Notes: generated by a model from the sequence alone, not told the origin. A stretch of 64,000 nucleotides of DNA from Phyllosticta citribraziliensis (GCF_038025025.1 NW_027117348.1:682001-746000); one strand, 5' to 3'; positions 1-59,570 are shown, counted from the first letter of the stretch. Numbers and translations: made by a program.

Positions 1-3000
1 TCGGCTTGCCCCCCCAAACGACGTCCTATATTCCAAATTGCTGTAGCTCAGTGGCTGTTCCAGCGAAGTATAGAGAGTGGATGTGAACGCATCTTGGACA
101 AGGCAGCCAGCCTGGCCAGAACCACACTGGAGTCGGCTTCCGGAGAAGAAACCCGCGAATCCCTGGGAATCGTCTACCAGCGAATCCTGACATACAAATA
201 CTTTCGTTACGGCCCAATGGGCCTATATGACGCAATCACGCTGGGCTACAAACACGCAGAGGCAGTGGCTTGTTACGGTCCGAAATTCGTTGCGGCTCTC
301 TTCTACGACGGATTGGAAAATGTTAGGCACCTGCAAGAACGGATCACGGTCGTAAAAATACTCGACCGAGGCAATTTGCATCAAAACAAATATACGGCGA
401 GCGGAGGTCTCGCTATTCTCGACCTCGCAATCAAATCGTACGAGACGATTCCAGATGATGTGTCAGAGGCAAGGCTGTTAGGTTTGAAATGTCAAAGCCT
501 CGCCATCTGCTACTCACTGCGACATCAAGCCAATGCATGCCGAGGAGATCTCGAGAAGGCGCTAACTATGGGAGCAATGGCCAGAAAGTTGATTCCAAAC
601 AACGACCCCGAACAGAGTAGGACTCTGTACACTCTCGGGAAATCGCGCGCAATGCTGCACTTTTGTACCAGCAAGGTTGAGCATGTAGACGAAGCAATCA
701 TACTTTTCGAGGAGGCCGTGAAATTTGAGAAGGCAGATCCTGTTAAGCGAGCATTCTATGCAGGTGGTCTTGCTGGCGCCCTCCGTCTACGATACACTCT
801 ACTCGATGACACTAAAGACTTGGAGGCTGCGGGAAAATGGGTGATGGAGGCCATGGGTCCGAGTGAAGGCGAATCCGACAATATGTCGATACTTCTGATG
901 GTGCATGGAACCATTCTGTTCGACCGTCACCGCAAAACCGGCGATATTGACGACCTAAACCTTGCGATACAAAAGATTTCCAGAGCAAAGGAGCTATTTC
1001 CTGAAGGGCACTTTTTGTTTGCTCAGGCTTGTTTAAACTTTGGTTGGCCATACATGTGGAAGTTCCGAAGAACAGGACACGCCGACGACCTCGAAAAAGC
1101 TGTCGAATCGTTTCGACAGGCAGAGAAATCTTCACAGGGAAAAACTGCTCCTGATCCTGAAACATCGTTCGCATTTTCAAAGGGGCTTTTCATACAGTAC
1201 CAGACAACCAAAGACAGTGAGACTCTCGAAGAAAGCATCTCAATTCTACAGGAGGCGATATCGTCGATACCGACAGACTATACTTGGACACCAATTCTGA
1301 TGACCGAGCTTGGACATCGATTTTTCTATCGCTACAAGTCTATGTCTAACCCGTCTGACCTCGATGTAGCAGTTTCATATGCCGAGGGGGGGCTGAAAAT
1401 ATTTGGCAAAACACATTACCATTGGGGGCTCACTGCTCAACTCCTCTCCACCATGCTCTTTCAAAGAGCGGCAATTCTTTCAAGCCACAATGAAGCAGCG
1501 AAGTCCCAGCAGTTAGTACTGGAAATTGCAAAGAACACGGCTGTCCCACCCTGGCTCAGAGTACAAGCTGTAAGCACAGCAATCCACGGGTTTCGGAATT
1601 CAAACAAGCAGTTCCTACAGAGGCACGACGAGCTTGCCCGGCTTGCCCTCGATCTCCTCCCATACGCTTGCAGCCGCGAGCTGAGCCGCGAAGACCAGCA
1701 AGAAGCGGTGAAGCTCATCGAATTCTTTGCTGCCGACAGCTGTTCCTTGGCAATCCGACTCGGAAACTTCCCAGAAGCTCTCCACAGAGTCGAGTACGGC
1801 CGCGGATTGGTCTTGGGTCACTTGATCGACAGGCAAGACGACCTCGCGGACTTGAAGGAGACACACCCAGACCTGGCTCAACGCTACGAGAGACTTCGCC
1901 ACGAATCTACCAGCGAGCTTGAGGCCGAGAAGCTGAGCAAAGAATGGGAATTTCTGATGAAAGACAAGAGAAAGGCTCAAGCGAAGTTGCGGCAGTGCGA
2001 AGACGAAATTCGTTGCCAACCTGGCTTCGAACATTTTCAGAAGCCGCCCTCTCTGGAAGAGCTTGGACAGGGCGGACTGCATGGCCCGGTCATCATTGTC
2101 AACGTGACAGACTTTCGTTCCGACGCAATCATCCTCCTAAAGGGGTTATTTACTGCTATTTGCCTTCCTGGAATGGTGGAAAACATGCCAGATTACTTTC
2201 GCCAAGCTCTGGATAGGCAGCGATCTGGAGCAAGGCTTCCAGATACAGTGACAGGTGTTCCAGAGCTTTGGAAACATCCATCGGAAAGGTTTCGGCTCGG
2301 GACAAGCACATACTTCAGGGCAAATCGACCCGTCGAGAGAGACTACGGCCAGCCTAATAGCCTGGAGCTACTGACCTGGTTGTGGCATTCTTGCGTTCTG
2401 CCCGTCCTCTTGGAGCTCCGCGCACACGGCATTTCGCGAGAGGATGACGGCGATCCACCGCGAGTCTGGTGGATTGGCTCGGGAGCAGCAAGCTCCCTTC
2501 CCTTCCATGCCGCCGGGGACTTCGGAGCAATGTACCACGTCGAAGGTCGTAGGCAGCAGGCCTCTAGTGATTTTCCAAAGACATGCATGGATTGGGTCAC
2601 ATCATCCTACGCTCCAACCATCAAGGCGCTACAGCACGCGAGAGCGAGAGCTGAACAATCACCTCTTGTGGATCGTCCTTCAATCACCGTGGTCACCATG
2701 CCCTCGACACCAGGCCAGTCTAATCTGAAGGGAGCTCAACAGGAGAAAAAGGCAGTGGAAGAAGCGGCTACCGGTTTCAGCGTTGAAGACTCGCTCGAAT
2801 GCCCGACCGCCGCGGAGGTTTTGGGCCGCGTCCCAGATTCTCAGATCTTGCACTTTGCGTGCCATGGCATGTCCGATCCGATTGATCCTAGCGCAAGCCA
2901 TATGCTTCTCCAGAAAAAGGAACCAGATGGACGTATCGTACCAGACAGACTCACACTGGGAGACGTCTTGGACCGTACGGTCAAAAGCGGATCCCAGAAC

Positions 3001-3309
3001 TGGCTAGTCTACCTATCGGCATGCTCGACAGCCCAGGTAAAGGCCGACAAGATGGGCGACGAGAGCCTGCATCTGGCCAGCGCATTCCAAGTCGCCGGAT
3101 TCGCTCACGCAATTGGATCCCTGTGGTCAGCGGACGACGACATTTGCGTGGAGGTTGCGCGTCTCTTTTACCAAGAACTCTCAGAGTATACTGGTACCAA
3201 GCGCAAAGTTGCCGTTGCGCACGCTTTGCGCAAGGCGGTGATCCAAATCAGAAGCCGACACTACGACAATCCAGCTCTTTGGGCGCCCTTCATCCATTTT
3301 GGGGCGTAG
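1..3309 (+). CDS. TPR-repeat + CHAT (caspase HetF/clan CD) protease, 5'-truncated by the window edge
   Basis: Frame 1 is open from base 1 (SACPPKRRPIFQ...) to TAG at 3307-3309. Repeated helical units (GDIDDLNLAIQKISRA, GHADDLEKAVESFRQA, NPSDLDVAVSYAEGG) precede a coiled linker and CHAT motifs: GPVIIVNVTDFRSDAIIL, RVWWIGSGAASSLPFHAAG, SSYAPTIKAL, HFACHG (His codon 2863-2865), YLSACST (Cys codon 3022-3024), FQVAGFAHAIGSLW and WAPFIHFG. Confidence 0.92.
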   Translation, partial: SACPPKRRPIFQIAVAQWLFQRSIESGCERILDKAASLARTTLESASGEETRESLGIVYQRILTYKYFRYGPMGLYDAITLGYKHAEAVACYGPKFVAALFYDGLENVRHLQERITVVKILDRGNLHQNKYTASGGLAILDLAIKSYETIPDDVSEARLLGLKCQSLAICYSLRHQANACRGDLEKALTMGAMARKLIPNNDPEQSRTLYTLGKSRAMLHFCTSKVEHVDEAIILFEEAVKFEKADPVKRAFYAGGLAGALRLRYTLLDDTKDLEAAGKWVMEAMGPSEGESDNMSILLMVHGTILFDRHRKTGDIDDLNLAIQKISRAKELFPEGHFLFAQACLNFGWPYMWKFRRTGHADDLEKAVESFRQAEKSSQGKTAPDPETSFAFSKGLFIQYQTTKDSETLEESISILQEAISSIPTDYTWTPILMTELGHRFFYRYKSMSNPSDLDVAVSYAEGGLKIFGKTHYHWGLTAQLLSTMLFQRAAILSSHNEAAKSQQLVLEIAKNTAVPPWLRVQAVSTAIHGFRNSNKQFLQRHDELARLALDLLPYACSRELSREDQQEAVKLIEFFAADSCSLAIRLGNFPEALHRVEYGRGLVLGHLIDRQDDLADLKETHPDLAQRYERLRHESTSELEAEKLSKEWEFLMKDKRKAQAKLRQCEDEIRCQPGFEHFQKPPSLEELGQGGLHGPVIIVNVTDFRSDAIILLKGLFTAICLPGMVENMPDYFRQALDRQRSGARLPDTVTGVPELWKHPSERFRLGTSTYFRANRPVERDYGQPNSLELLTWLWHSCVLPVLLELRAHGISREDDGDPPRVWWIGSGAASSLPFHAAGDFGAMYHVEGRRQQASSDFPKTCMDWVTSSYAPTIKALQHARARAEQSPLVDRPSITVVTMPSTPGQSNLKGAQQEKKAVEEAATGFSVEDSLECPTAAEVLGRVPDSQILHFACHGMSDPIDPSASHMLLQKKEPDGRIVPDRLTLGDVLDRTVKSGSQNWLVYLSACSTAQVKADKMGDESLHLASAFQVAGFAHAIGSLWSADDDICVEVARLFYQELSEYTGTKRKVAVAHALRKAVIQIRSRHYDNPALWAPFIHFGA

Positions 3310-18809: not shown

Positions 18810-19625
18810 TTACAACTCGTTCGTCGGCTCGGTTCCGGGGAACTTGCGCGCAAACGAAACCAGCGTGATAACCTGGTCGACCTGCAGCGTGTTCGGATTG
18901 ACTCCAGGGTTGACAGCGCGGATTGCACCTTCCGAGCTGCGGTACCTCCGGCCAAGGATGTAAAAGGTGTCTCCCGCTTTGATCTTGTACGGTGTCAAAT
19001 CGGCCGAACTGTTGTCGCAGATTGGTATGTTGACCACTTGACCAATGTTGACAACGTCTGGGTTTGGAATGTTCGCCTTATTGGCTCCTGTGAGGGCATC
19101 CAATGTGATGTTGAAAGCTCGCGCGAGTGCTCCGAGAGTGTCCCCTGATTGGATGATGTAGAAGCCAGGGCCTCCGTTGATGCAAGTCGCGGTGGGAACG
19201 ACCGTGGAGATACAAGAAGTGCTGTCAGGGAAGCAGACCTGAGGGGGGATAATAAGGGTAGCACCAGCCAAAATGTAATCCGGGTTACTGATGTTGTTAA
19301 ACTTGGCAATGTCGCAAATGCCACGGTTGAACTTCTCCGCGATCTTCGTGAGAGTGTCGCCTTGTGGGATCACATAGGTTTGCGTGGTGGTATCGAGAGT
19401 GATGGAGCCGTTGCAAACTGGTGTCGATGATGTGTCAATAGCGATGGTCAAGTCGAAGGATGTCGTGGAGACCTCACGTTCTCGAGTCTCCAAGTTATTG
19501 ATCAGGGCTCGCTTTCCAAGACGTCCGACGACGTTCAAATCAGCAGCATCGGGATATGCCTCAGGCATCGCAGCAGCGAAGCCGAGGAGGGATGCTCCGG
19601 CAGCCACAAGAGTGATGAGACGCAT
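18810..19625 (-). CDS. Secreted 3xLysM chitin-binding protein (Ecp6/Slp1-like effector)
   Basis: Signal peptide MRLITLVAAGASLLGFAAA and a KR site, then three LysM motifs: YVIPQGDTLTKIA...NPDYILAGATLIIP, YIIQSGDTLGALA...NPDVVNIGQVVNIP and YKIKAGDTFYILG...NPNTLQVDQVITL. Intronless. Confidence 0.92.
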   Translation of the reverse strand: MRLITLVAAGASLLGFAAAMPEAYPDAADLNVVGRLGKRALINNLETREREVSTTSFDLTIAIDTSSTPVCNGSITLDTTTQTYVIPQGDTLTKIAEKFNRGICDIAKFNNISNPDYILAGATLIIPPQVCFPDSTSCISTVVPTATCINGGPGFYIIQSGDTLGALARAFNITLDALTGANKANIPNPDVVNIGQVVNIPICDNSSADLTPYKIKAGDTFYILGRRYRSSEGAIRAVNPGVNPNTLQVDQVITLVSFARKFPGTEPTNEL

Positions 19626-32053: not shown

Positions 32054-33103
32054 GGCTGATGGTACTGGAATAATGTAAAGAAAGTGTAGGAAACGAAGGA
32101 ACGAGAGACTGTGGCCTACCTTGACCCATGGTTGCAGCAGGAAGAGACTTATAAGGGGCGGAAACAAAGAAGCGCGGGTGTAGCTGGGGGCGCTATGCAT
32201 ACACAGCCCGGATCTACGCACATTTTTCGAAACACACGGACTAGACAGCTCCTTTAACTGTTTGGCCAAGAGGTCGAGGAAAGCGCCTCGAGGACGAGGC
32301 GTATGGACGAGGATGCATGTCGAGAGCGCAAACAAGTCCCGACTGACAGCCAATCGCACGGGAGAGGACCATGTGAAGCAGACGAGGCAGAGAGAAACAT
32401 GATGAGGCAGAGAGGGGCATCAGCAGGCGCCGAGTCGATCCTAGTGGAGAAGGTGGCAGAGCAGGGTGTCGAGATGGCGGCTTCGTAAGGCGAGCGGTGA
32501 ATGATGAGTGGACGGCCACGCAGCCAAACGGCAGCACGTGCATGCGAGGATAAGGACAGACACGACGGAGCGCCAGACGAGGCAGCGCGTGGCTGGACGC
32601 AGTGGCTAGACCAGGCGCGGGATAGAGGATGGCGATGGACGTGATGGTGTTGAGGGGAGCTGGGACTAACGCAGCGACTGACGTGAGGAGCCGAGGCCGT
32701 CGACATGATCCTCCCCCTTCGGTCATGGTCCGCTGCTGCACCATCCACCATCCACCATCCACCATCCCCTGTCGGCGTCGCCCTCCCTCCTCAACACCAG
32801 ACTCGACCAGGGCATCCTCAAAGAGCCGTCCGTCGTCATTCTTAGCCAGGCATCCGAGCCGACGGGGTCCAAGGTCGCACCCCACCCGAACCAGGGCTCC
32901 GGCGGCCCGTCCCCAGGAACCTAAGCTACCACCCAACACAGCGCCCGCCCCGTGTTGACGCCCGCACTTCGCGTCCGCGTCCTCGACCACCGGTATCGCT
33001 CCACCGAGCGACGCGTTTCTCCTGTTATTGCTTTTGTCCGGCCCGTCGCCTACTTCAAGCCCTCCCACTGCTGTGCTCCGCATTGAGACACCACGCGCCC
33101 CCC

Positions 33104-34753
33104 ATGGCCTTGTCACGCGAGTCGAGCCCCGCCGCCCTCTTTGAGCCTCCAAGCTCCCCTCCGCCGCTGCCGTCTGATTACAGCCGGAAACGCTCGCGGT
33201 CGCCCACCCTCCACGACCACAGCCAGGGGAGCTCGTCGAGCGACGCCTTTTTATTCAGCAGCGACGACGCGCCCGAGGGCGTGGAGAATTACGAGATCCC
33301 CAATCGCAAAAAGAGACAGTACGTTGGAACGTGGTGGGCTCACGAGGACAAGCCTGCGAGGAGCCCTAAGCGAACCCCGAGGCCACGGGCTAAGAAAAAG
33401 CTATCCAGGAACAATGACAGCGGTGTCTGGCTGTCGAGCGAGTCGTCCGACGACTCCGCCATTGAGCGTCTGGCCGCCGCTCCCCGTCCAGTCCTGTTTG
33501 GATCCGTCCCGCGAGCTCAAAACCCACCTACTGAACAAGACAATGCTGCCGGACACGCAAGCGCCAACGAGAAGATCCAAGCATGTCTGGAGAACGGAAT
33601 CGAGTCGGTTGACCTCTCGTAAGCTACCCATCGATAGCGAGAGGCGTCTACTAACGAATGCAGTGCAATGCATCTAGGCTCGATTTCCGACGAACTCATC
33701 CAGCCGCTCGCGCAGCTCATCAGAAACCCTCGGGTTGGCGCCGAAGTCCCAAAGGAAGACTCGTACCAGTCCTTCACCCCATCATTGAAGATCTTCCTCT
33801 CGCAAAATGGGCTTCGAGCCGTCCCCATGTCACTGTGGAACCTAGAGAACCTGTCAGTATTGAGCCTGCGCAACAACAAGCTCGAGGAAATTCCGCCTGC
33901 CATCGCGAACCTCAAGAATCTCACGGAGTTGAATCTGGCTGGAAACAAACTGCGGTGGTTGCCATGGGAATTGCTTCGACTTGTCGCTCCTAGCGGCAAG
34001 TTGACATGTCTCAACGTGACCCCAAACCGCTTTTTTCAAGGTGGAAAGTTCTCGGGAACGCTGGAATTTTCAGATGATTCCCAGGAGATGGTGAAGAAAC
34101 TTTCCGACTTCAGGGAGGCCCTCGATGACCCCGAGCAGGCTGCATCACGAGAGCAAATCGCCTGGTCCATCCGTTTGTACGAAACTCTCCTTAAGCGCAT
34201 GGAAACTCGCGATCCCGCGCCAACACCGCGCCACGAGTGTCCAGCTTGGAAAAGGGAACCAGTGTACATCACGAGCACTCCAGTGGCCCGGATGGATTTT
34301 GATGGATCCTTGCAAAGGAACTCGCCCGTTCCCCCCTCGCGCGCCTCTCGCGACGTCTCCATTTTGCCAGCAGCAGGTGCAGGCCACACTCCGGCCATGG
34401 AGCTCGCCAACCTACCCAACAAGACTCGCGTTCCGTCCCTGTTTGAACTTTCCCTCCGCGCCGCTGCCGGCACCTCCAGCCCACACACTTTGCGGAACTT
34501 TTTTTCAGACGAGTCTTCTCCCAAACTTGTTGTTCGCGGACTTGAGGAAATGGAGCGCGCCCTGAACGCAGGGGGTCGAATCTGCTCCGTTTGCAGCAAG
34601 CCTTACATCCAGCCTGGGGCCGAGTGGGTCGAGTATTGGCACTATGCGGACACGCTGTTTTGCGGGGCCGAGGACTCGTTCCTGCCTTTCCTGAGGCGGG
34701 CTTGTTCGCTCGGCTGCGCAGCGGCAGTGAATGGCGGCGAGGTGCAGCAATAG
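33104..34753 (+). CDS. Leucine-rich repeat protein; intron 33619-33663
   Basis: Starts MALSRESSP with KRQYVGTWW and NNDSGVWLSSE. The GTAAGC...CTAAC...CAG intron joins in frame to LRRs (LENLSVLSLRNNKLEEIPPAIANLKNLTELNLAGNKLRWLP). C-terminal VPSLFELSLR and CSVC...LPFLRRACS. Confidence 0.85.
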
Positions 34754-36790
34754 ACCAGGGACCGCGTCGATGATGCTCGAAGCTGGATTGAAAGAGGCTG
34801 GTGCGTGGACCCAAAACCGATGGTGCAATTGTCGATCGGGCTTTCACAAACCTTCCCCCGAAACGTGTACTCTTACAACCCTGCCCGCAGTCTCTCACTG
34901 CACTTTTGTTATCTCGCACGGCGTTTGGATGGCTGGAGTCTGGCCTGGGGCGTCCCGGAATCGGATGATGGACACTGGATGGCCTGGCTGCGATACGGCC
35001 GATCCCTTTCTCCTTGATTGCTTGTCGGATTCTTGCAGATCAGTCCTTGATTTTCCTCTCTAATTTGTTCCATTTCCTGGGTTGACGCAGGACGGGACGG
35101 GACGGGCGGCAGGTCTCGCGGCGTTTTGAATGGTTGGATTGGTGGAAGGAGGCTGTGTGTTGCAAAATACCTCGTCTACCTACCTCACTTTCCTTGTTCT
35201 CTTCCTAGTCACCTCTGTAGTTTGGCTCGACCTGATTGATTCGGTCGAGGTTTCATACCAGGGTCTTCCTAATTTCAACCACGGTTCCCACGGGCGAACT
35301 GCTGCGATACTGTTTACTCGGAATCCGGCCAACCGAAGCGGGAGGATTGCATGACATGGCATGACATTGCCGTCTGCAGGAAATCTCTGAAAGGGGCAGA
35401 AAGACGGCAATGATGACGATGGGCGGAAGTACGTCCTGCGCAATGCGTAACGGCGACAGTCCTTGCATGCCGGTGGTGCAGGTGGAAGGTTCGTCCCGCC
35501 GCCCCGCGTCGGACCGCGACCTCGAAGTGCATCAAGTCTTGTGCTGTATCTGCAGCTGGCCTGGCCTGCACCAAAAGAACAGGGTTATGGTTGGAGTCGG
35601 AGGTTTGGAGTGGCAGCGCTATCAACTCCTCGTTGCTTTTTCCCCAGTCAACCCCACACCCATCTCCACACCAGCAAATCGCCGACCGCCAGCGCCCTTT
35701 ATCCGTCACCGCCAATTGACGTTTATCATGCATCCGCATTGGCGGGAAAAGGCAATTCTCGACAGAAAGAGCCATCGTCCATCAACCAACAGAAAAATTG
35801 CGCTGGACGCTGCAGGCCGCGACGTCATGGCTCCATGCAAGGAGCGTTCTGTCGCCTTCAACGCAACGCGACGCAACGCGCTGCCGTCTCCCCTATCTCG
35901 TCGTCTCGCCTGATCAGTCCTGCACTCGCCCGTTGCCGTACGACTACGACTGGGCCAACTTGTCGACGGATGCGATGCCGGGCGCCCCGCTTGAGCAAGA
36001 AAGCACCGTTTCCTCCTCGACGACTTGCTGAATCGATTGTCGCTCACTTGCGATTGGCCACTGAGCCATGCATTGTCTGTGAATTGCATGCAGGTACCGG
36101 CAGCCGCAAAATGTGAATGGTCGCATCGGGGACTTTCTGAGGCAGGTCGATCTTGTCGCTTTGAAGGACCACGCCTCGCAAAGGTCACGTCAGCGACCCT
36201 GGCCTTCGATGGAGGCCTCAAGAGAGCGGTATCGCACATGTGGCCAATCGGGGAGCATCCATGGCGCTGCTCATCTTGTCCATCCTGGTCGCGTTTTCCC
36301 AAAGTCACTTCACGCAGCGTGTTGCGCACTGCATCTTTGCATCTTTTTGAAGCTTGCCCTATATTTCGGGCGGGGCTTGTCTTTCTCTTGGATGGCACAA
36401 ACACTCGCCGCTTGGACCTTTGGATCCTGGACGTCTGGTCTCGACGTTACACGCGCGACTGCAAGACGCGTGGGCACCGTTGTCGTGTCGCTGTGACCGT
36501 GCTGTCTCAGCCTCTAGTATTTGCGCATGCGGTGCCCAGGCAAAGCATGAGGGTGGTTTAATAAACAGCTGTGCCTCTCAATCGCCTTGAGCTCAAATTC
36601 TGTTGGTGTCGTTTTTGATGTTCGATTTTTGAGCAATCTCCTGCGGCCATTGAGCTCGATTCTTCTTTCTCATTCAATCTCTTATTGTGAGTTTCTCCTA
36701 CTCCTGTGTATCTGATGATCTATACTCATGATTGGTACAGCTTGACCGTAGGACTCTGCTCCGCGTCTTTCGTTCGACTTGCATCCGGGA

Positions 36791-39700
36791 ATGCGCTTTG
36801 ACTCGAGCGATTCATCAGAGAGCAGGTCTGAGTCGCCTGACCCATACCTCGTCGAGTTCATGGAGCCGGAATGGATGGATGAAGCGGACGACGATCATGC
36901 ATCAGAGTCCTCAGAGTCAGAAGAATATTCGCCTGGTCGGGAGCAGGCGATGATAGACTCTATCTACTTCAACCCCGAAATACCGCGTGGGTCACCTGAA
37001 ATCGGCCTTCCAACGACACCGGTCCTTAGATCGAAGACGACCGAAGAGCTGGTAGCCCGAGAGCCTGGCGAACAAACAGTGAGCACCGACAGTCATGTCT
37101 ACGACCCAGTAATGTCACCGACCCCGCAGCCGCGACGTGTGGAGATTCCGGAAAGCTCTCCATTCAACACAGACTATGCATCCTTCCCGTCGAGTCCATG
37201 CTCCAAGGACTGCGACTACGAGGACGACGAGCCGGAGACAGTTGGCGCCGACCCTGACGATCCTGAAGCCCTATTCAGGCCGCGACGTCCAGAATGGTAC
37301 CATCCCCACACGAACATGTCGAACCAGTATTTCGAAAACAACAAGAATCCGCCTCAGCTACTTGAAGACTACGACCATTGGAAAAAGGAGACAATGACAG
37401 TGGTTCTCATAGCCGGGTTCAAAGAATTCGCCAATGGCAACCTCGACAACCATCGGGATTCCATATTCTTCCGGGCAGGCGACCGAAAGGCCTTTGGTAT
37501 CATCACGCGTGCAATGGAGAGAGGAATACCGGGGCTTGAAGAGGCGGTCGAAAAACACGTTCGGGACGGCAACTCATCCCCTTGGCCGATGCGCGATTGG
37601 GTCATTGCCGGGCGATGCGCGCGGGACCCCAAGGGAAAACGAGGGCTGCTTCCCGCGGAGATTGCTATCACGTCGCCGGATGCTTTCAACATGACGTCGA
37701 AAGACCTTTTGCTGGCTTTGGACGAAGTTGGCAAATGTGGTTTGAATACGCCCGAGTCCATCTCTCCTGGCCCTGTGTTGAATGCTCCCGGACCCTCTAC
37801 TCTTCCTCCCGCTTCTTCTGTCCCTCACCTTGCATCAAATGCTCCTGGAACTTCTGCACTAGCTACTACATCAGCTCCTGAGCAAGCTCCTGAGCCTGCA
37901 TCGACATCGAATGCTCCTGGACCCTCTACTCTTCCTCCCGCGTCTTCTGCCCCTGGCACAGCATCGGATGCTCCCGGTCCCCCTACACTAGCTACCACTT
38001 CGGCTCCTAACCCTGCGTCGAATGCTCCTATACCCTCTACACTTACAATCGCCTCGAACCCTGGTCCTGCATTGAATGCCCCCGAACCCTCCACTATTCC
38101 TCCTGATTCGGGTGGCACTTCATCTGCCCCTCCCCCGGCCTCTCACCCCGGCCCTCCGTCCGCTGATCCAACCGAACAGTGGTATAACCGCCGAGATCGC
38201 TACATCGAGGAGCTAGACCCAGAGGAGGTCTTCGCGCAATGGCGACGGTTCTTTTCCAGCAGCCTCTCAGACAACGGCGGGTGTGTCAAAGACTTTGCCA
38301 AACATTTGGACCAGCAGTGCTACGACTTGGAGATCTTTCGCAACCATTCCGAGATCCCCATATGGGTGAAGAAGATGCAGTTTCTTCACGGCCTGCCGGA
38401 GGGATTCGCCCGAGCCAAAGCAAAGTTCTTGAGAAAACATGGGCGACGGCTATTTCGTCAGGATCCCGAGCGCGATGGTCAGGGCCGTGTAATGGAGGGC
38501 AATGCTAGAGCTGTGACTTGGGATTATTTGGTCGAAGAGATGGAAAAGGAGGAGGCGCGTCTGCAGGGCAAAAGAATGAAAGCTATGGAAACAACGGGTT
38601 ATGAACCAGTGGAGAGATTTTTGGAGGGAGGTGAGGGGAATGCTGATGAGCAGCAGCTCATGAGAGAAACAGCCGAGTCGGAGAAAAAGGCCAAGAAGGA
38701 CGTGCAAGATTCAAAAACGATATGTCCTATTTTCAAGGAGATTCTGAGGGATAGGTTCCATGTTGCAGCCGAAGGTGCCGCCAGTCATGCCTCTAACGCT
38801 CCGCCGACTCGCCAGGAAAAGGTACCTTCTCCTTCAAACCTACCCAACGCCCCTCTCCGCACTCCCTTTTACCAATTCACCTCTTCTCGAAAACGCGCTG
38901 ACCCAACAAAGGACGCGCTCCCTTCCAGGAGTTCTTTGAAGCAACCGTCGCTGCCAACTGCCAGCGGCTCTTCTGTTGCTGCTGCTGCTGTCGCCGCCGC
39001 CGACGCTACCATCGCACCACCTAGGAGCGACAAGTCCAAGGGAAAGTCAACACCGACGGAGAAGGTCAAGACGAAAAAGACCACCAAGCCGAACCCGCCC
39101 GACACGTCCAGCAGCAAGACAGCGACTGCGCAGTCCAGCGCTTCAACGAAGAAGGAAAGCGACTCTAAACCACCCAGTTCTTCTGTGACAAAAGCCGTCG
39201 ATCCGCCCGAAGCACCCAAAGACAAGACCAACCTGGAATTGCCCAGAACGCCTGTAAAAAGGCCGAAGTCTGTTCCGCAGAGCGTGTCCGAAACCAAAAA
39301 CATCACGTCCAAGCAGCCCAGCACCACCGGGTCCAAGGTCATCAAGTGCGAACCGCTCAAAGTCCCTCCGAAGAAAACCATCAAGCTCGATGCCCCAGTG
39401 ACCTCCAGCAGCGAAGTTTTCAAACATGAAGCGCCCATCAAATCTGACAGCCAAGGGGAAACGGCAATAATCCCCTGCACCCCTCCTCGGAAGACGATCA
39501 TCGACCCACGTCGAATCGACGTCGACCCCGACACGCTGCCAGACTACTGCAACACGTGTCGCAAGAGCGGACACGCCGATCGCACGCGGGCCTGTCCGCG
39601 CTTCGACCCAGTCAGTGGCGTCATTGTCGGTCGCGACGTCGGACGCGCTCTGTTGCCAGGGAAGACGGAGCAGGGGCGCTTGCTGAAAGAGAGGGACGAG

Positions 39701-40267
39701 GTTTTGGCTAGGGAGAAGCATGCCGCGGAAAAGGCTGAGAGGAAGAGGGCTAGGGCTGAGATGAAGGAGCGAGAGAAATCAGAGAGGCAGAGGCGTGAAG
39801 GGGTGGCGGGAGAAGAGAAGGGCCAAGTTGAGGTGACTGTTCTGGAGAAGCCCAAAAATGCTCCTCAGGCCACGGTACAGGGTGATGGTGAGCCCGCAAC
39901 GTCGACGAATGCTCCCAACGCCGCTACTCAGGTCGAAAGCCAAAAGAAGAAGAAGTCCAAGGAGAAGAAGGAAAGGAATGCTGTTCGGAGCCTAGCTACC
40001 ACTCCCGTTGGGGCCAGGAGTGACTTTGGAGACCGAAATCACCCGCATGCTGCGCCCGAGACGAAAAATGGCCTGCCGGTCGCTCTGCCATCTCAGCCCC
40101 AACCTACAGCGATCGCTGGCACCAAGAGGAAAAGTGACGAGGTGGATGAGGCGGCGGATGCGATTGAGGCTGAAAGCAAGAGGCGCAGGCAGGAAAAGAG
40201 GCGAATGAAGAGGGAGAAGGCGAAGGAGAAAAAGGAGCGCCCACTTGAGTGTCCAGTTGGTGAGTGA
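36791..40267 (+). CDS. Large intronless protein with Ty1/copia Gag-like segments, a Pro/Ser/Ala/Thr repeat insert and a zinc-knuckle-like motif
   Basis: Uninterrupted ~1158-aa ORF. Segments PQLLEDYDHWKKETMTVVLIAGFKEFANG...DRKAFGII, VKDFAKHL...FLHGLPEGF...VTWDYLVEEMEKEEARL and CNTCRKSGHADRTRAC, followed by a Lys/Arg-rich tail. Confidence 0.75.
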   Translation: MRFDSSDSSESRSESPDPYLVEFMEPEWMDEADDDHASESSESEEYSPGREQAMIDSIYFNPEIPRGSPEIGLPTTPVLRSKTTEELVAREPGEQTVSTDSHVYDPVMSPTPQPRRVEIPESSPFNTDYASFPSSPCSKDCDYEDDEPETVGADPDDPEALFRPRRPEWYHPHTNMSNQYFENNKNPPQLLEDYDHWKKETMTVVLIAGFKEFANGNLDNHRDSIFFRAGDRKAFGIITRAMERGIPGLEEAVEKHVRDGNSSPWPMRDWVIAGRCARDPKGKRGLLPAEIAITSPDAFNMTSKDLLLALDEVGKCGLNTPESISPGPVLNAPGPSTLPPASSVPHLASNAPGTSALATTSAPEQAPEPASTSNAPGPSTLPPASSAPGTASDAPGPPTLATTSAPNPASNAPIPSTLTIASNPGPALNAPEPSTIPPDSGGTSSAPPPASHPGPPSADPTEQWYNRRDRYIEELDPEEVFAQWRRFFSSSLSDNGGCVKDFAKHLDQQCYDLEIFRNHSEIPIWVKKMQFLHGLPEGFARAKAKFLRKHGRRLFRQDPERDGQGRVMEGNARAVTWDYLVEEMEKEEARLQGKRMKAMETTGYEPVERFLEGGEGNADEQQLMRETAESEKKAKKDVQDSKTICPIFKEILRDRFHVAAEGAASHASNAPPTRQEKVPSPSNLPNAPLRTPFYQFTSSRKRADPTKDALPSRSSLKQPSLPTASGSSVAAAAVAAADATIAPPRSDKSKGKSTPTEKVKTKKTTKPNPPDTSSSKTATAQSSASTKKESDSKPPSSSVTKAVDPPEAPKDKTNLELPRTPVKRPKSVPQSVSETKNITSKQPSTTGSKVIKCEPLKVPPKKTIKLDAPVTSSSEVFKHEAPIKSDSQGETAIIPCTPPRKTIIDPRRIDVDPDTLPDYCNTCRKSGHADRTRACPRFDPVSGVIVGRDVGRALLPGKTEQGRLLKERDEVLAREKHAAEKAERKRARAEMKEREKSERQRREGVAGEEKGQVEVTVLEKPKNAPQATVQGDGEPATSTNAPNAATQVESQKKKKSKEKKERNAVRSLATTPVGARSDFGDRNHPHAAPETKNGLPVALPSQPQPTAIAGTKRKSDEVDEAADAIEAESKRRRQEKRRMKREKAKEKKERPLECPVGE
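37760..38110 (+). repeat. Coding tandem repeat, about 6 x 57 bp (~19 aa, core [SL][ND]APxPSTL)
   Basis: Copies read LNAPGPSTLPPASS, SNAPGTSALATTSA, SNAPGPSTLPPASS, SDAPGPPTLATTSA, SNAPIPSTLTIASN and LNAPEPSTIPPDS. Confidence 0.85.
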
Positions 40268-40709
40268 GGTGAATGATGGCTGATGGATGAGATAATGGTC
40301 TGATTTGGTCTCTTTTCTTGTTCTCTTTCTCCTTCCTCCTCTCTTCTCTGGATTGTTGTGAAATGGAGTTGTCCACTGCTTCAAGATGTCACGTCGCTGG
40401 TTGTGGAGTATGTCGAGCTCTCCTAGGATTTGACTACGTTGTTTTATTCAAGCCTGTATTCCCCCGCAGCCTTTGCCTTCGCCGTGGTTACTGATTTTAG
40501 CAAGAGCCTCTAACTTGTGATCACGAAAGGAGAAGGTCGTCGCCCCGCCGACTTGTGACTTCTGCTGCCCGTCCACGGCGACAACTTTTCCATCCTGACG
40601 CCGAGAGTCTTTTTACCCTGAGGCCGACATGCAGCTATTCTCTTAAAAATCTTCAGCACTCGTTTTGAATCCATCTTTCCCACACATTTCATCCACGCAC
40701 GCAGGCAGC

Positions 40710-43700
40710 ATGGCCGCACCGACGCGGCTCGACATTGCGCCCCTGTTTCGCCCGGCAGGGAACTCACCTCCTGTCTACCTTGCGCAGTACCTCAGACGAG
40801 AAGAGGCTGCCAAAATTCTTAGCCTGGGCTGTGGCGACATTCGCAACGTCCTCTTCACGGCGTATTGCGAACGGGATCATGGTGAGAAAGAGCTTGATCG
40901 CGAAGACTTCACTTGCTGACCTCGACCAAAAGACAGGCTGCTGGACATCACCTGTTGCGACGTCGAAAAAATGGTGATCGGTAAGATGAGGTCGTCCGCC
41001 GCGCGTTGTCATTCGCTGACCTTGGCCACTTCAGCCCGAAACATCTTCCTCCTGTCGATATTCATCGACAGCGAATCGTCCGCCGTTACCGATGCAGCAG
41101 TGTTCGGGATCTTCACAGACATGGTTCTCAACGAGGAGACGTTCCAGTTCTTCCGGAAACAAGGAAAGAAGCTCCGACAGCGCGCCAAGACACTGGAAAG
41201 ATGGCACAACTCGATCTACGGCAAAGTCATAAGATTCTGTGACAGTGCGTCACTGGACCGGGTGCGTGAGGTCTGGGAATGTTACAGCAGAGGAGATGCC
41301 AGCGACTACACTCAGTTTGAGACCATGTTGAAGGGGGCCAGAGACGTGGGCAAGGCAAAGGGCGTCTCGGCGGAGCTGCTCATGGCGTCTGCCCCTCTCA
41401 ACACCGGCCCGCACACGCTCCTGGAGACCATGCGCGAGACTTACTGGAAACTTGGACAACTTGGATATGAATCAGAGGAAGAGGTTAAGGAAGGAAGATT
41501 ATGGAACCCGACCTTTGGGTGCAGAGCCGCCCACACCGTCATCCATCCAAGCACCTTTCCGCTCGAGGGGTTCCACCTTGCATTGGGACAAGATTTATTC
41601 GACGGATTCTCCCCAATGACTGAGCTGCCTCCCGAAGCAGCCAAGAAACTTTCCCAAATGGCACCTGGAATGATGCAATTTTTCGCGTGGTGCCGCGCTT
41701 TCCGTCGGGGCTGCCAGGATGGAAAAATCACTCTGAGGTTCGCTGTCGGTGATGCTCTAGCTTTTTGCTACGTGCTGCGCGATCTCCACCCGGGAACCCC
41801 ACAGCCTGCTTCGAGGTGGGCACCGCGTGGCCGTTTGAAAATGCAGAATATGGACTTGAATAGCCCAGACTATACCCCGGAAGTCAGCTCCGAGCCAGAG
41901 GCCTCCGAGGCTAGTGTAACAGCTGCTGGGCCAGGTAAAAAGGGTCCGAAAGCAAAGAGCAAAACGCCAGAAACGAATTTCAAGGCACCAATCCGCTTCA
42001 ACGCCATCGATACGGGGCGTCTAGTCGACAAGTGCGGCTCGTTGAACATCTTGCTGGCAACAGCGCCACTGCTCGACTGGTCGCTGTCTTCAACACTGGT
42101 GACAGAGGCGTCTTTGACCGAGGATCCAAACGAGACAGGCGTTTTGGTCGGCTTTTTCCCAGGGCACTTCGACACTATCGCGCTGGTGATTGGACTGATG
42201 CCAGTCGAGTTCTGGTGCAATACAACATCGGTGCCTCCTGTGTCCAGGACCTTCTCGTTGTTGGCGCAGAGGCTGCTTAGGAAGCATCCAACAGTAAAGA
42301 CCAGACTTTGTTGGAAAAGTTGCATCGCCAACGACGTCATCCTTGATGGCATGGGTCGCTTTTCGGGTCTTTCGTATGGTGCGAACGCCCTTGCTTCGTT
42401 TGTCCATATCCTTTATGCCAACATGTTTGGCCCTGGCGAAGGTACTTTACCCCGTAAAGTGAAGAGAGGTTCTCCTTTACTCCATCACACACAAGCAACC
42501 TTTGTCGCGTTTCTGGAGAGGATCAAACACACGTCTGTTACCGCGTGGGGCATTTTCGCAAAGGATTTTCTGAGCCAATTTGACGAGGCGGCCAAGTCGA
42601 CGGGAAGAGGCTACTTCTCCGAGTTGTTGGTTCAGCTGCACCGATTTGGCGTCTTGGACTTTGCCGACTCGCGACGCCTGTTGGGACCACCTTTCGCAAA
42701 TGCAACCCTCGTCCACGCCACTTTGCGAATTCCAAGGGAGGTTTTTCAACGTCTTTGGGGAATCAATCTGTCAAAGCTCGGAGACCTCCGAGTGGTGTGC
42801 ACTGTCTGGCATTCGGAGTCGGTAATCATGGACTTTGGCGTCCTCCGCATGACTTTCGGGACCATTCGGGAGTCAGGGCACGTATTTGGAAGAAGAAGCT
42901 GGCGCCTCGTCATTGACGAAGACCAAGATGGTTGGCTTGGGTTCTCTCCTCTCCTAGTCACCTTCTGCGCCCCATCGTTGACGTTCTCGGAGCCCGACCT
43001 GGTGGTAGCGTTCCGTCTCGAGCAAGACTCCAAGACGGCCGAAGTTCTTGGGCCCATCCTTGGTCCTTCTATGGTCATCTTCGAGACAGGCCTCGACAAC
43101 GAGGAGGGCGTTTTCGTCTGCTCTGAACCTCCCGTCATCCATTCACCAGAGGACATTACAGATCAAAGGCACGACCGATTAGTTCCTCGCGATCTTATTG
43201 CTCCAAGACGCCAGAATCCGACAGGCGCAAATCCTCAGCAGTCGTCTCCTGCAAATGGCACCGTCGCATCGGCATCCGTGGAGGACCAACAGGCCGCTGT
43301 AGCTGCTAGAACATCAGCATCCGCGGAAGATCAGGGGGACGCTTCAGCTGCCGGAGTACTTCAAAACGGCCATGACCCAGCTTCTACCGGTTTTGCTTCA
43401 AAGGAGCTTCCAGAAAAACAGCTTCAACCAGAGATGCTCTTTAAAGTCAGGCTTCATGTGGTCATGAACGAGGTAGGGGAAATGGGAGCGATGTCCGCAC
43501 AGCTCTCCCTTAAGTCGGGGGAGTGGAAAATGAAATTCGCCAATGGTGCTAAGGTCACCGCAAAGCTTGCCTCTCCCTGTGGGCTGGCAGTCTCCATGGA
43601 AGGAAGCGAATCCTTGGGACACATCCTTTTCCCAGTCCCTTTAATCCAAAGCAAGTTTTTGGTTGTGGGAGATCCCGAAGAAAACACAGTTACAGTGACG

Positions 43701-44717
43701 GTCGGGCCCGGCGATCCACTCGAAGAGCGGTACGTTCCCATTCTCATGTGGCCGAATTACCTATTCGATGGCACTATCGTGGTCAACGGAGTGTCATCCT
43801 TGGCTCTGGACGGTCTTCCAACTTTCGACAAGTCCCGCATTGGAGACGTCGAGGGCTTGAAGTCCCTAATATTCCACATTCTGTCTTCTCCTGAGGCTCG
43901 TATACCGCATGACGGCATGGTGCGCAGCTGCGACCCACGCATTAGCTTCAAAAACGACTTGATGGAACTTTTCAAAGGTGCGGCGGGTCTCGACCGGCCT
44001 TTGAAGACATTTTTCATCTTCTGCGACGAAGCGAACAAAGACAGATTCATGATCTGCGTCTCAGCCTTGCGTTTCGATATGAATGAACAATCGATCGTAC
44101 TGGACGCCGCCATCGTCGCCGTTACGGCGCGCAACAGGACTCGGGTGAAGATTTTCGCAAACACGTGTTTCAACAAACACGGCTCTCCTGGCGATGAAGT
44201 CCGCCGCATCTACTTCTCGAACCGCGAAGTTCCACTGTGGAACAGGATGTTCGCAGGGGCCGTCGAGCGCGCCAGAACTTGGTCGCACCGAGACGACTGC
44301 GAGTACAAAGCCGTTGGCCATATGCCTCTCAGCTACGACGTCTACAAGGAATTTCTGTGCTCGTGTGGCCATGGCAAACTGCCAGAAAACTTCTACCCAC
44401 GCAATGCGCCTGGCTGGGACAAGCTCCAGGAGACTGCGGTTCGTGCGGCCATCTCGCCATGCTTCGTGTCAATGTTGGTCGAGCCGCAGAGAATGAACAA
44501 GTTGGTAGCCGAATGCGCGGGCAGGAAAGCGGACGACACCGACTGCTTCAATTGCAGGAAAACGCCGGAGCAGCTCGGGGGCAAGACGATGAGCAAATGC
44601 GCCGGATGCGGTGTCGCAAAATACTGCTCGAGAGAGTGTCAGAAGGAGGCCTGGAAGATGCACAAGTCAATGTGCAGCTTCTACACCGGTTTTGGTAATA
44701 ACGACCGGGAGAGATGA
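40710..44717 (+). CDS. DUF4470-type N-terminal domain + C-terminal MYND zinc finger protein; introns 40882-40932 and 40981-41034
   Basis: PAGNSPP, ILSLGCGDIRNVLFT and LDITCCD...ARN after splicing, then FAVGDALAFC, WSHRDDCEY and LCSCGHG. MYND finger CFNC...CAGC...YCSRECQKEAWKMHKSMC. Confidence 0.9.
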
Positions 44718-45975
44718 TGGAGTGGTTTTCGTTGGCAGGGGGATGAGTGGATTCTAAAATGGCAATGGGCAGTTCTGGATAGGAGGAGTTGAAAAATGCA
44801 AAAGGACAGAGGCTAGTTAGAGGTCGATAGCTGACAGCAGGCGAAAACAATTTGCTTTGAATCCGTTGTCGAGGAGGAGTTGTATCCTGAGGATAAGCAT
44901 GTCGAAAAGGTGATGTATCAGGCAATTGGCCTGTTGTCATCCCCAAGACACACAATCAACGCCTTCGGCATTCGTCTTTCGAAGGAGAGAAGATAGAAGA
45001 GTGGCACGTCTTTCAATCTCCATGGCGCCGAGCAAAAGGTGTATCACGGCCTCTTGGCAACGTCGCCATCAATCCATCCTCTTGCCTAGGTCCCTTCTTC
45101 CCCACAAAACAGTGCAGCACAAAGACGGCACGGCTGATTGGGTCATTGAGTCATAGATATCTGTACCCTGGACGTTTCTCTTACTTCGGCCAGAAGCAGC
45201 ATTTGAAATGGCTCGTCAAAAAAGTGTCCGAGGCCGCCGAAGTGTTGGTGTTGCACGAAGACTGTTTGTGGTTGAAAATGATAGCAGCTTTTGGCGGACT
45301 GCCCGGAGCATTGGAAGAGTGGGATAGGGCATAGCATGACTCCAAACGCGAAGCCTGGGACAGGCGGGACTGCCGCCAAGTCTGCTCGCCCGCCACCGCA
45401 GGCTCTCCCACTCTTGCGCATTTTTAACCTTTTGGGCGGGCCTCATGGATGCTCCCACTTTTGCCGGTATCAGTCACGTGCGGCGAGACGGTATTCTCTC
45501 TCCGCCGCCCGCGTCCACCCTTGGGCCTGCTCCAGCTCGTGTGTGTGTGGAGATAAGCCGCCTGCCCTGCGCCGTCCCCAAAAATGGGTTAGGGAGCTTG
45601 TGTCATGACGTTCGCGCTGGGTGGTGGATAGGCTGGCCGGGCAGGCATGCTCGACACGCCAGTAAATGGATACACCATGGTTTTTCTCTTATATTTGCCG
45701 GGCATGCTCCTGGCCAGGCGCACATGCACCGGAAGACGTCGAGAGTCTACTATTTTATCTTTTTTCGTCGACTCAAATTGCGGCGGTATCGTGACTGCGT
45801 TTTGCTCTACGCGTACCTGGTACTCGCCAATCCGTTCCCGCTCTCGAAAAGAATTCGGTCAACGACACCTCATGTGCCAGCATTGCCTTCGTCCGCGTCT
45901 GTCGTCTCGTCCTCTCAGCGCCGCCGCTGCTTCACGGGGCTCGCCATTTGAAGTCACGCGCCACTTTCTGTCGCA

Positions 45976-58369: not shown

Positions 58370-58691
58370 TTTGTTGGTTTGGTGCAGGGGCTTGGGCTGG
58401 CGCAAATTCAGTGGTGTGTTTGAGGCGTGGAGAGATGATTCACAAGACAAACGAGTCCTTGGTTCGACGAACAAAAAGTCAATGCGGACATCCCGTCTTT
58501 CCCAACATGATTCTGACCATGGGCCTCGCTTCGCTGTTGTACGCTAATTCCAAAGCGAACCAGGTAACGAATGCCTCTGGGGTGTTGAGCCAGTCCACCA
58601 TAAAATGCCACACAACCGCTCGAGTCGGCAAACTCATTTCACCTCAGCCCTTTTCGGAACACACTCCAAAACAATCCACAAAGAAGTCAAG

Positions 58692-59570
58692 ATGGATTTC
58701 TCAAGTCGATCACACAAGCTCTGGGCCATGGCACTCATCCTGGCCTTGGTCGCGTTCCTTCTTCTCGGCAACATGGGCCCGGGACAAGTCGAACAAACTC
58801 TCGACAAGCGCGGGGCTCCCGAAGGCGAAGCCGATGGCTGGAAACATGTCTGGGGGTCAATGGCTGCAAAACTCAAACACACTCTCCACAAGCGCGGAAA
58901 CGACAACGACAAGGACAAGGACAACGACAACGGCGGATACGCAGACGCCGTCGACTACATTCTCGAAGGGCACACGACGTTGCAGAATGCCTGGGGTACA
59001 GTACCAAACGAGTTCAACGACCAGCAGGAAGTGGCCATGAGGAAGATCCCCGGGCCGAAGACGGAGCCGCCCTTTGAGCCCTGCAACCGCAAGGATTGGG
59101 TCATGTGGCTCTCCTTCGGCGCGTCCCACGAAGAATTCTGGAGCCATCGCGATGCGAGGGATGTTTCATGCCTCAAGGACGCCGACTGGAAGTCCAACGG
59201 ATGTGCCCCCCTCTATAACCGGCCTGGACTCTGGCCTGGCATTGTATGGGACTTCACGGTCGCATGCCAGCGAAAGGACTTTGCCAGGCTCAATCTCCCA
59301 GATTTCAGAAGTGCCTTCAGGCAAGAGATGGGTTCGATGGTCAAATTTCATCCCTTCATCAAACAACGGTTTGCCAAAGATGCCATTCACATGTGCACCA
59401 AGCAACACTACAACAGGCCGCTCATGGATTCCGAGTTTGGCGACATTGTATCAGAATCGAAGAAAAGATGTCTTGGCTATGCCTGGTGGATGGTAAAGTG
59501 GCTTAAAGATGGTAATTTTAAAAGTGGAAAACTCCCCTTAGAGGAGATACTCACATGGATACATACATAG
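58692..59570 (+). CDS. Secreted or membrane-anchored protein with a C-terminal bacterial/fungal-type (group XIV) phospholipase A2-like domain; catalytic His replaced by Lys
   Basis: N-terminal hydrophobic helix LWAMALILALVAFLLL, then TLDKRG and TLHKRG. DADWKSNGCAP...WDFTVACQRKDFARLNL matches the family pattern DWxxDGCS...F..aC.RHDFgY.N. IKQRFAKDAIHMC and a C...A..Y-like end follow. Confidence 0.7.
   Translation: MDFSSRSHKLWAMALILALVAFLLLGNMGPGQVEQTLDKRGAPEGEADGWKHVWGSMAAKLKHTLHKRGNDNDKDKDNDNGGYADAVDYILEGHTTLQNAWGTVPNEFNDQQEVAMRKIPGPKTEPPFEPCNRKDWVMWLSFGASHEEFWSHRDARDVSCLKDADWKSNGCAPLYNRPGLWPGIVWDFTVACQRKDFARLNLPDFRSAFRQEMGSMVKFHPFIKQRFAKDAIHMCTKQHYNRPLMDSEFGDIVSESKKRCLGYAWWMVKWLKDGNFKSGKLPLEEILTWIHT

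Follow-up and report, generated by a model that had tools for sequence, protein, structure and literature searches.

The gag-like locus and its features

The window analysed here is a stretch of 64,000 nucleotides (nt) from Phyllosticta citribraziliensis (NW_027117348.1:682001-746000), and between positions 36791 and 40267 on its + strand it holds a single open reading frame (ORF) of 1158 codons without interruption, which is annotated only as 'hypothetical protein'. Phyllosticta includes important citrus-associated fungi, while P. citribraziliensis and P. capitalensis are non-pathogenic endophytes. We propose, with a probability of roughly 0.7, that this is a host gene of Phyllosticta descended from a Ty1/copia-type gag, with loss of pol and of the long terminal repeats (LTRs), based mainly on the predicted fold of one of its domains. 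The gene itself is intact, spliced, syntenic and genus-wide, and has neither pol nor LTRs.

A first-pass annotation of the window, made from the DNA alone, had read this frame as a probable domesticated Ty1/copia Gag gene with three Gag-like motifs, lying between ordinary host genes and lacking pol, flanking LTRs and damage by repeat-induced point mutation (RIP), and its description of the motifs, the setting and the missing features was borne out. The frame is intact and the three motifs lie where they had been placed, at residues 187-238, 497-591 and 920-935. No protease, reverse transcriptase or integrase is present, and at E ≤ 10 the whole ORF matched no Pfam domain at all. There are no LTR-like direct repeats in 33000-44000, where the only repeats were those inside the coding region at 37778-38109 and some short matches of low complexity, and with a GC content of 0.50-0.59 across the gene there is no AT-rich, RIP-like tract. 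The neighbours are a leucine-rich repeat (LRR) protein gene upstream (33668-34750) and a MYND-finger protein gene downstream (40971-44717). The features of the gene are as follows, with percentages giving protein identity to P. citricarpa and P. capitalensis, respectively.

36611..36686, + strand: non-coding exon 1 (minimum extent), seen as 76 letters 5' of the 36686/36741 joint in one contig
36687..36740, + strand: intron of 54 nt in the 5' untranslated region (5'-UTR), GT..AG, with 36686 joined to 36741 in contigs of two studies
36791..40267, + strand: coding region, 1158 codons with the in-frame intron retained, 1128 if spliced
36920..37024, + strand: block N (residues 44-78), a conserved short motif in an acidic, Ser/Glu/Asp-rich disordered N-terminus; 86/74%
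37286..37735, + strand: block A (residues 166-315), conserved and predicted all-helical in a low-confidence model, candidate capsid N-terminal lobe; 67/39%
37736..38218, + strand: Pro/Ser/Ala/Thr-rich linker of species-variable length, with six imperfect coding repeats
38219..38563, + strand: block B (residues 477-591), capsid C-terminal-domain fold and homodimerisation module, both predicted from structural models; 53/41%
38822..38911, + strand: in-frame, phase-0 intron of 90 nt ('exitron'; codons 678-707), absent from spliced contigs of three studies and encoding block C (residues 678-707); 83/80%
39488..39598, + strand: block D (residues 900-936), RKTIIDPRRIDVDPDTLPDY followed by a CCHC-type, nucleocapsid-like knuckle, within a basic Ser/Lys/Pro-rich tail; 92/76%
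40118..40264, + strand: C-terminal basic segment with KRK...KRRR..KRR runs (at residues 1112, 1130 and 1136)

Block B is predicted to have a capsid C-terminal-domain fold

Motif (ii), GCVKDFAKHL...IPIWVKKMQFLHGLPEGF...VTWDYLVEEMEKEEARL, spans residues 497-591 (~38279-38563) and makes up most of block B, which we modelled as residues 472-595 (38204-38575) with two full-length orthologues as alignment rows. Using this three-sequence alignment and the block alone, AlphaFold2 returned a mean predicted local distance difference test (pLDDT) score of 86.2 and a predicted template modelling (pTM) score of 0.80, with pLDDT values of 86, 81, 75, 73 and 44 across the five models, and ESMFold2 gave a pLDDT of 79-81 without any alignment. 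A wide structure search of the model against 48161 PDB chains using VIA placed the Drosophila copia capsid (8vvw_A) at the top with a Z score of 10.0, although values below ~13 may reflect a common arrangement in helical models. Here 90 residues were aligned onto chain residues 96-186, which form the capsid C-terminal domain (CA-CTD), with a root-mean-square deviation (rmsd) of 3.0 Å and 14% identity. The CTD of PEG10 ranked second, 2.3 below copia at Z 7.7, and every one of ranks 1-34 was the capsid of a retrovirus or retrotransposon or a domesticated capsid, including those of murine leukaemia virus (MLV), Drt2, Rous sarcoma virus (RSV), MOAP1, human endogenous retrovirus K (HERV-K), PNMA2, dArc, human T-cell leukaemia virus type 1 (HTLV-1), feline immunodeficiency virus (FIV), Arc, human immunodeficiency virus (HIV) and Ty3. 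The first unrelated chain appeared at rank 35 with a Z of 4.4, and 36 of the 50 rows were capsids.

Likewise, eight of the first nine rows returned by Foldseek for the block B model were CTDs of Ty1 p22, Ty1' or copia. When VIA was applied to Foldseek's 75 chains, copia again scored 10.0, followed by PEG10 (7.9), Ty1' (7.5 and 7.4), Drt2 (7.3), Ty1 p22 (6.7-6.8) and MOAP1 (6.8), so that the top nine entries were all capsid CTDs, seven of them from the Ty1/copia superfamily, before a drop from Z 6.7 to 4.7. An earlier model of 426 residues (residues 166-591), which had a mean pLDDT of 43.7 with 65-88 in block B, also gave 8vvw_A as the first VIA match among the 48161 chains (Z 8.7, rmsd 3.4 Å over 89 residues, CA-CTD residues 94-182) and Drt2 as the second (Z 6.7), with retroelement capsids in 32 of 50 rows; Foldseek found nothing with this model in the PDB (best E 6.9). 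Because one structural superfamily fills the list and is then followed by a gap, because two models and three search routes agree, and because this superfamily had been predicted beforehand from sequence motifs, rather than because of any single Z value, we accept the assignment, and predict with high confidence that residues 477-591 have the fold of a capsid C-terminal domain.

Capsid CTDs work by pairing. With two copies of block B, ESMFold2 gave values of 0.44, 0.40 and 0.41 (median 0.41) for the interaction prediction score from aligned errors (ipSAE), against 0.00 for the best of three controls, with a partner pLDDT of at least 79 and a contact agreement of at least 81%. Of 30 proteins solved as pairs, 21 attained the mark used for a homodimer, and of 23 solved as single chains none did; the model supports binding of block B to itself without demonstrating it. 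The predicted interface is made of model residues 4-17, 45-62 and 76-84, which belong to the first and third helices and part of the fourth, and VIA pairs model residue 11 with Ty1 residue 266. In the Dimer-1 interface described for Ty1, Ty1' and Drt2, V266 of helix alpha-1 packs against F312 of alpha-3 (PMC12530519), and the predicted block B contact would be of the same kind.

The N-terminal block, the linker, the knuckle and the basic tail

Motif (i), PPQLLEDYDHWKKETMTVVLIAGFKEFANG...DRKAFGII, opens with PPQLLEDYDHW and occupies residues 187-238 (~37349-37504) within block A. Among the 30 Atlas matches of this block the sole named family was PF13961 (DUF4219), which we take to be the copia-Gag N-terminal family. 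It is a weak lead, as the match was to a cluster with PF13961 in 69% of its members and its score of 0.85, with 99 shared features, is below the noise line. Block A alone gave no Pfam family, and no PDB sequence match except for a designed-repeat artefact. The linker that follows is built in part from the repeats at 37778-38109, which have a spacing of 54-72 nt and a super-unit of 129 nt, encode Pro/Ser/Ala units resembling S-N-A-P-G-P-S-T-L-P-P-A-S-S, and vary in copy number between species.

The knuckle, CNTCRKSGHADRTRAC, comprises residues 920-935 (39548-39595), and its ligands C920, C923, H928 and C935 are invariant among the Phyllosticta orthologues. The pattern C..C....H.{4,6}C was seen in 14 of 200000 shuffles of the protein, which together with the invariant ligands indicates that the Cys/His motif is beyond chance. 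Pfam did not report PF00098 here, and PF15288 (zf-CCHC_6) was matched on the knuckle only at E 0.086, with 13.2 bits against a cut-off of 22. Residues 725-899, in the Ser/Lys/Pro-rich tail ahead of block D, have a net charge of +13. At the C-terminus the pattern AGTKRK..VDE..KRR..EKRR is kept in orthologues, and these basic clusters look like a bipartite nuclear-localisation signal (NLS).

The gene is spliced and contains an in-frame intron

We compared assembled contigs with the window across 33000-45500. The runs behind them are not recorded as RNA, and their RNA nature is taken from splicing: contigs from two studies of one organism omit GT..AG-bounded segments at six places in three genes, and because such segments are skipped we treat the contigs as spliced RNA. 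From these spliced contigs we infer that the gene is expressed, and the annotated ORFs in four species show its open frame to be kept. The 5'-UTR intron has its GT at 36687 and its AG at 36739-36740, and within non-coding exon 1 there is an upstream ORF of four codons (ATG TTC GAT TTT TGA, 36618-36632). The second joint, which removes the 90-nt intron, is also found in a contig from a third study, on another organism.

This second intron (38822-38911) has GT and AG ends together with a CTGAC branch-like motif, and it encodes the basic motif VPSPSNLPNAPLRTPFYQFTSSRKRADPTK, containing RKR, which constitutes block C. The spliced product of 1128 amino acids (aa) is the annotated P. citribraziliensis protein and differs from the 1158-codon ORF only by the 30 intron-encoded residues. 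Yet the peptide is one of the most conserved parts of the protein, with the 83/80% identity given above set against 27-28% just upstream, and in three species one annotated model splices out precisely codons 678-707 while another keeps them. A retained-intron isoform was not seen among the assembled contigs, which drop rare variants. To all appearance the segment is an exitron, conserved across the genus, by which a basic motif is switched in or out, and such a conserved, in-frame spliced motif is a separate small puzzle.

Relatives were found only in Phyllosticta, with conservation in islands

A word-index search with the whole protein found three relatives, all from Phyllosticta, with 8000 candidates scored. 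Likewise, a profile of residues 166-591 searched against 1.84 billion representatives gave two matches at E ≤ 0.001, both from the gene's own family, and no paralogue or relative outside Phyllosticta at this threshold. The annotated proteins number 12, in three 90% clusters, and belong to five species (P. citribraziliensis, P. citrichinensis, P. citricarpa, P. paracitricarpa and P. capitalensis), with a single one in each assembly insofar as these are listed, and single copy is meant here in terms of annotated proteins per assembly. ORFs of 1075-1202 aa are annotated in four of the five species. Overall identity is 48% to the P. citricarpa protein and 36% to that of P. capitalensis, and the linkers are 23-28% identical. 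A gap of 17 residues in block B of one orthologue is a gene-model artefact, the segment being present in two other family members.

In a related organism (~91-94% nt identity) a 13-kb contig is collinear over 33-45.5 kb, across the LRR gene, the gag-like gene and the MYND gene, and with collinearity extending over all three genes, synteny of the locus holds for at least one relative. The P. citrichinensis member and its MYND orthologue lie on contigs of equal size.

These comparisons bear on whether the gene could be a decaying, gag-only copia relic, still open and transcribed but under no selection for a host function. The P. citrichinensis model has only 256 aa and diverges from the family after ~residue 229. 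The contig of the related organism lacks 38631-39677, a stretch of 1047 nt that takes in block C as well as the knuckle and is replaced by 25 other letters, and with a 1-nt deletion at 38533 the net loss comes to 1023 nt, a multiple of three; in the same organism a net 129 nt, one repeat period, is missing within 37862-38001. Together with linkers that vary in length at 23-28% identity, these losses are what a relic would show, and the gene may be breaking down, being remodelled or dispensable in some lineages, with an assembly artefact as a further possibility. None-the-less, ORFs of 1075-1202 codons have stayed open in four species despite overall identities of 36-48%, islands of 74-92% identity stand between free-running linkers, two spliceosomal introns are conserved in position at a locus that is collinear in a relative, and there is no LTR, pol remnant or AT-rich decay. 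We consequently regard a relic as very unlikely.

Evidence against a Gag origin and alternative explanations

Besides the truncated P. citrichinensis model and the shortened locus of the related organism, a number of results weigh against a Gag origin, and the most direct come from sequence searches. Pfam returned no families for the whole protein at E ≤ 10, none for the P. citricarpa and P. capitalensis orthologues at E ≤ 1, and none for each of the three sequences in the family alignment at E ≤ 10. The blocks searched alone gave no Gag family (PF14223 Retrotran_gag_2/UBN2, PF13961 or PF14244 Retrotran_gag_3) at E ≤ 10, and their only matches, all below threshold, were PSP for block B (E 0.056), zf-CCHC_6 for the knuckle (E 0.086) and two domains of unknown function (DUFs), bearing in mind that HMMER's filters discard most matches above E ~0.1. 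The copia and Ty1 Gag chains in the PDB were missed by phmmer and by the profile at E ≤ 10, a PDB profile search with the three-sequence alignment gave only low-complexity linker matches (best E 0.02), and an Atlas search with block B returned only unnamed clusters (0.92). As there is no sequence-level support, homology rests on predicted structure from three diverged sequences.

The structural and comparative data have weak points of their own. Foldseek gave no row at E ≤ 0.001 for block B (best 0.75) and found nothing in the viral BFVD library, where most rows were phage proteins and the best E was 1.6; 8s41_A, the other copia entry, reached only Z 6.2. The helices of block A were modelled only at a pLDDT below 50, making structural matches of that block meaningless, and there was no profile similarity between blocks A and B (hhalign probability 0.05%). 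Invariant residues are not significantly concentrated at the interface of the predicted homodimer (10 of 26 versus 34 of 124, P 0.12), and the passing score of this pair may come from solved CA-CTD dimers that the model remembers. The knuckle sits ~330 residues C-terminal to the CTD-like block. As for the zinc knuckle of the first-pass annotation, its presence and conserved ligands hold, but the spacing is CX2CX4HX6C in all orthologues rather than the canonical nucleocapsid CCHC spacing of CX2CX4HX4C. Finally, conservation peaks in the short motifs of blocks N, C and D and not in the capsid-like domain.

Taken at face value, these results would fit a genus-restricted 'orphan' nuclear protein, mostly disordered and with no retroelement ancestry, in which block B is a small bundle of helices that resembles a CA-CTD only through convergence or model bias. 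No Gag profile match was obtained anywhere, 1.84 billion proteins yielded no relative outside Phyllosticta, none of the Foldseek E-values was significant, the Z of 10 is inside the range flagged for helical models, and the model comes from three sequences whose conservation is highest in short linear motifs. Such convergence or bias would, however, have to account for 34 consecutive top ranks out of 48161 chains being filled by one structural superfamily before a gap, for the same answer being given by two models and three search routes, for a CTD-like block preceding a CCHC-type knuckle as in Gag order, and for an independent, if weak, lead to the copia-Gag N-terminal family (PF13961). An orphan origin therefore appears unlikely to us.

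Another possibility is an RNA-processing factor unrelated to Gag, with block B being a La-type xRRM or a PSP module accompanied by a zinc knuckle. PSP is a proline-rich, RNA recognition motif (RRM)-binding module that is paired with a zinc knuckle in ZCCHC8. Block B matched RRM2 of human La (1owx_A) at E 1.7e-4 over ~100 residues (38255-38557, residues 489-589), or E 0.0045 with the full-length protein, and PF04046 (PSP) matched at E 0.056 over IPIWVKKMQFLHGLPEGF. The La match was not obtained from the P. citricarpa or P. capitalensis orthologues at E ≤ 10 or from the three-sequence profile, and by our own reckoning from the alignment its score comes mostly from one stretch of 14 residues (VTWDYLVEEMEKEE against VTWEVLEGEVEKEA). 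Furthermore, no RRM family came up in Pfam, and the block is folded as helices by both predictors instead of in the beta-alpha-beta arrangement of an RRM. The PSP match scored 13.6 bits against a gathering cut-off of 19.6 and was reproduced by none of the three members of the family alignment. We rejected the La xRRM identity, given its lack of reproduction by orthologues or profile and the helical fold in both predictors, and likewise the PSP identity, which is below the cut-off and not reproduced in orthologues; an RNA-processing factor of either kind is hardly credible. As an aside, the La match, statistically significant with a single sequence, is a cautionary case in which a phmmer score was driven by one short stretch with a Trp in it (VTWxxLxxExEKE).

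The rate of divergence likewise gives no help to a Gag origin. At 48% identity to P. citricarpa, the MYND neighbour has diverged to the same degree as the gag-like gene, which means that fast evolution is not specific to the gene and offers no arms-race argument, and for this reason we no longer argue that it outpaces its neighbours. Vps18, a housekeeping gene in the same window, keeps 53-60% identity even to other fungal classes, which indicates that the gag-like gene and its MYND neighbour are both fast-evolving. It may be that the locus as a whole evolves unusually fast or is inherited separately. Identity of the MYND protein to that of P. citrichinensis is 89%, against only 48% for P. citricarpa. 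Contigs of ~42 kb (41653-41994) carry the relatives of the two genes in the assemblies of P. citricarpa, compared with contigs of 1.3-3.9 Mb in the other species.

Weighing both sides, we favour descent from a Ty1/copia-type gag. Of the checks that the first-pass annotation had proposed for its host-captured copia Gag, comparison with Ty1/copia capsid structures came out in its favour (the best match of block B being the copia CTD at Z 10.0, with capsids in ranks 1-34), as did those of copy number and synteny (one annotated copy per assembly as listed, in five species, and collinearity in a relative) and of expression (GT..AG-spliced contigs in three studies). Its profile search did not: PF14223, PF13961 and PF14244, as well as PF00098, were never reported even at E ≤ 10. 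The claim of capture is thus supported by structure and unsupported by sequence profiles, and the link to Gag is visible only through the predicted fold, all sequence searches having failed.

Comparison with known gag-derived genes

Co-opted gag genes are well studied in animals and rare in fungi. The closest structural relative of block B is the Drosophila copia capsid (8vvw, 8s41), in which a CTD is likewise followed by a CCHC-type knuckle. In contrast to copia, with which it has no detectable sequence or profile similarity, the Phyllosticta gene has introns and lacks pol and LTRs, and its protein carries a disordered insertion of ~160 residues before the CTD, ~330 residues between CTD and knuckle, and X6 in place of X4 within the knuckle.

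Ty1 p22/p18 and Drt2 (7nlh, 7nli, 9rxy) are, as described, likewise fungal CA-CTDs of the Ty1/copia superfamily without pol (PMC10951436, PMC12530519), DRT2 having been described in yeast by Hannon-Hatfield et al. (PMC10951436). They share the predicted fold of block B (Z 6.7-7.5 over 83-85 residues from Ty1 residue 266), top the Foldseek list, and dimerise via their first and third helices as is predicted for block B. By their published description they are short, consist of the CTD only and are close in sequence to the element that they restrict, whereas the Phyllosticta protein has ~1130-1160 aa, a candidate N-terminal domain, a knuckle, NLS-like tails and long disordered regions, with no detectable Gag similarity.

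Wang and Han (2021) describe 14 deep co-options of gag (PMC8321522). The fungal cases that we found in print are three of these (Crtg12-14) and the Ty1-derived restriction factors of yeast. Crtg12 and Crtg13 are given there as Ty1/copia-derived, single-copy, expressed genes of Dothideomycetes, and the survey, as it is described, did not seek events younger than family level (PMC8321522). The first-pass annotation had summarised earlier knowledge without these two published fungal cases (PMC8321522), although the yeast Ty1-derived restriction factors that it named are indeed in print. According to the same description, Crtg12 and Crtg13 resemble the Phyllosticta gene in their fungal class, superfamily, single copy, expression and absence of pol, but they were found by gag sequence similarity, are shared above the family level (Pleosporales and relatives) and were analysed over ~217-293 sites. 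Set apart from them on the basis of that description, the Phyllosticta gene is confined to its genus (Botryosphaeriales) in HMMER searches, is four to five times longer and is recognised by structure only. Ty1/copia gag co-option in Dothideomycetes is therefore already published, and what is new here is the erased similarity, the extra length and the exitron. Our search of the literature on gag domestication in filamentous fungi found no case from Phyllosticta or Botryosphaeriales, which does not prove that there is none, and a search on Phyllosticta copia elements found nothing relevant.

Among animal proteins, Arc, PEG10, PNMA, MOAP1 and SCAN share the CA-CTD fold predicted for block B (Z 5.5-7.9), and they are precedents for a capsid lobe being reused within a host protein as an oligomerisation or capsid-forming module. 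They differ in being Ty3/gypsy-derived, in belonging to another kingdom and in having Gag similarity that sequence profiles can detect, and none has long low-complexity expansions or an in-frame spliced motif like those in Phyllosticta.

Proposed origin and possible roles

We propose that the gag of a Ty1/copia-type LTR retrotransposon was captured in Phyllosticta, that pol and the LTRs would have been lost and spliceosomal introns gained, and that the protein was probably stretched to ~1130-1160 residues through low-complexity insertions that are likely to be disordered. In the present-day protein the CTD would pair via its first and third helices, the CCHC-type knuckle and the basic tail might take the nucleic-acid-binding part of a nucleocapsid, the basic C-terminal clusters could direct the protein to the nucleus, and block A is possibly a capsid N-terminal lobe. 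Overall, this would amount to a self-associating, nucleic-acid-binding protein.

If the gene is of Gag origin, we would give even odds to the CTD acting as a pure oligomerisation module in a nuclear scaffold or RNA-binding role, by analogy with SCAN, PNMA and Arc-type Gags; that the best-conserved parts are short motifs suggests host partners. More doubtful, on the same premise, is a role as a dead-end partner of copia-type Gag that restricts elements in the manner of Ty1 p22 and Drt2. For p22 and Drt2, restriction is described as depending on interface residues that match and on a sequence close to that of the target (PMC12530519), and close similarity to a target element is not evident for the Phyllosticta protein. 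It is improbable that the full Gag core, comprising the block A lobe, the block B lobe and the knuckle, still assembles capsid-like particles or condensates around RNA, and equally so that the protein is in this way a fungal counterpart of Arc, PEG10 or PNMA2 with the exitron setting the place or partner of assembly.

Should descent from a Ty1/copia-type gag hold true, sequence-based surveys undercount co-opted fungal gag genes, and more of them should come to light if 'orphan' genes of fungi are screened again by structure. The gene would also be a tractable candidate for the study of retrotransposon control or capsid-like assembly.

Other genes in the window

Away from the gag-like gene and its two neighbours there are genes for CHAT, amino-acid permease, LysM, G-patch and Vps18 proteins. 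The scan covered 15 of the window's 28 ORFs with 180 aa or more, and none of the 15 was a retroelement; the other 13 were the gag-like ORF, the MYND ORF, a second, open-ended copy of the first ORF, ORFs that overlap others or are antisense, and three short ORFs standing alone. The CHAT-domain protein gene is at 217-3306 (E 1.5e-32), and a gene at 18813-19625 encodes a secreted-type protein with three LysM domains. A protein with a prokaryotic-type phospholipase A2 domain is encoded at 58605-59567 (E 5.1e-7, just above the cut-off).

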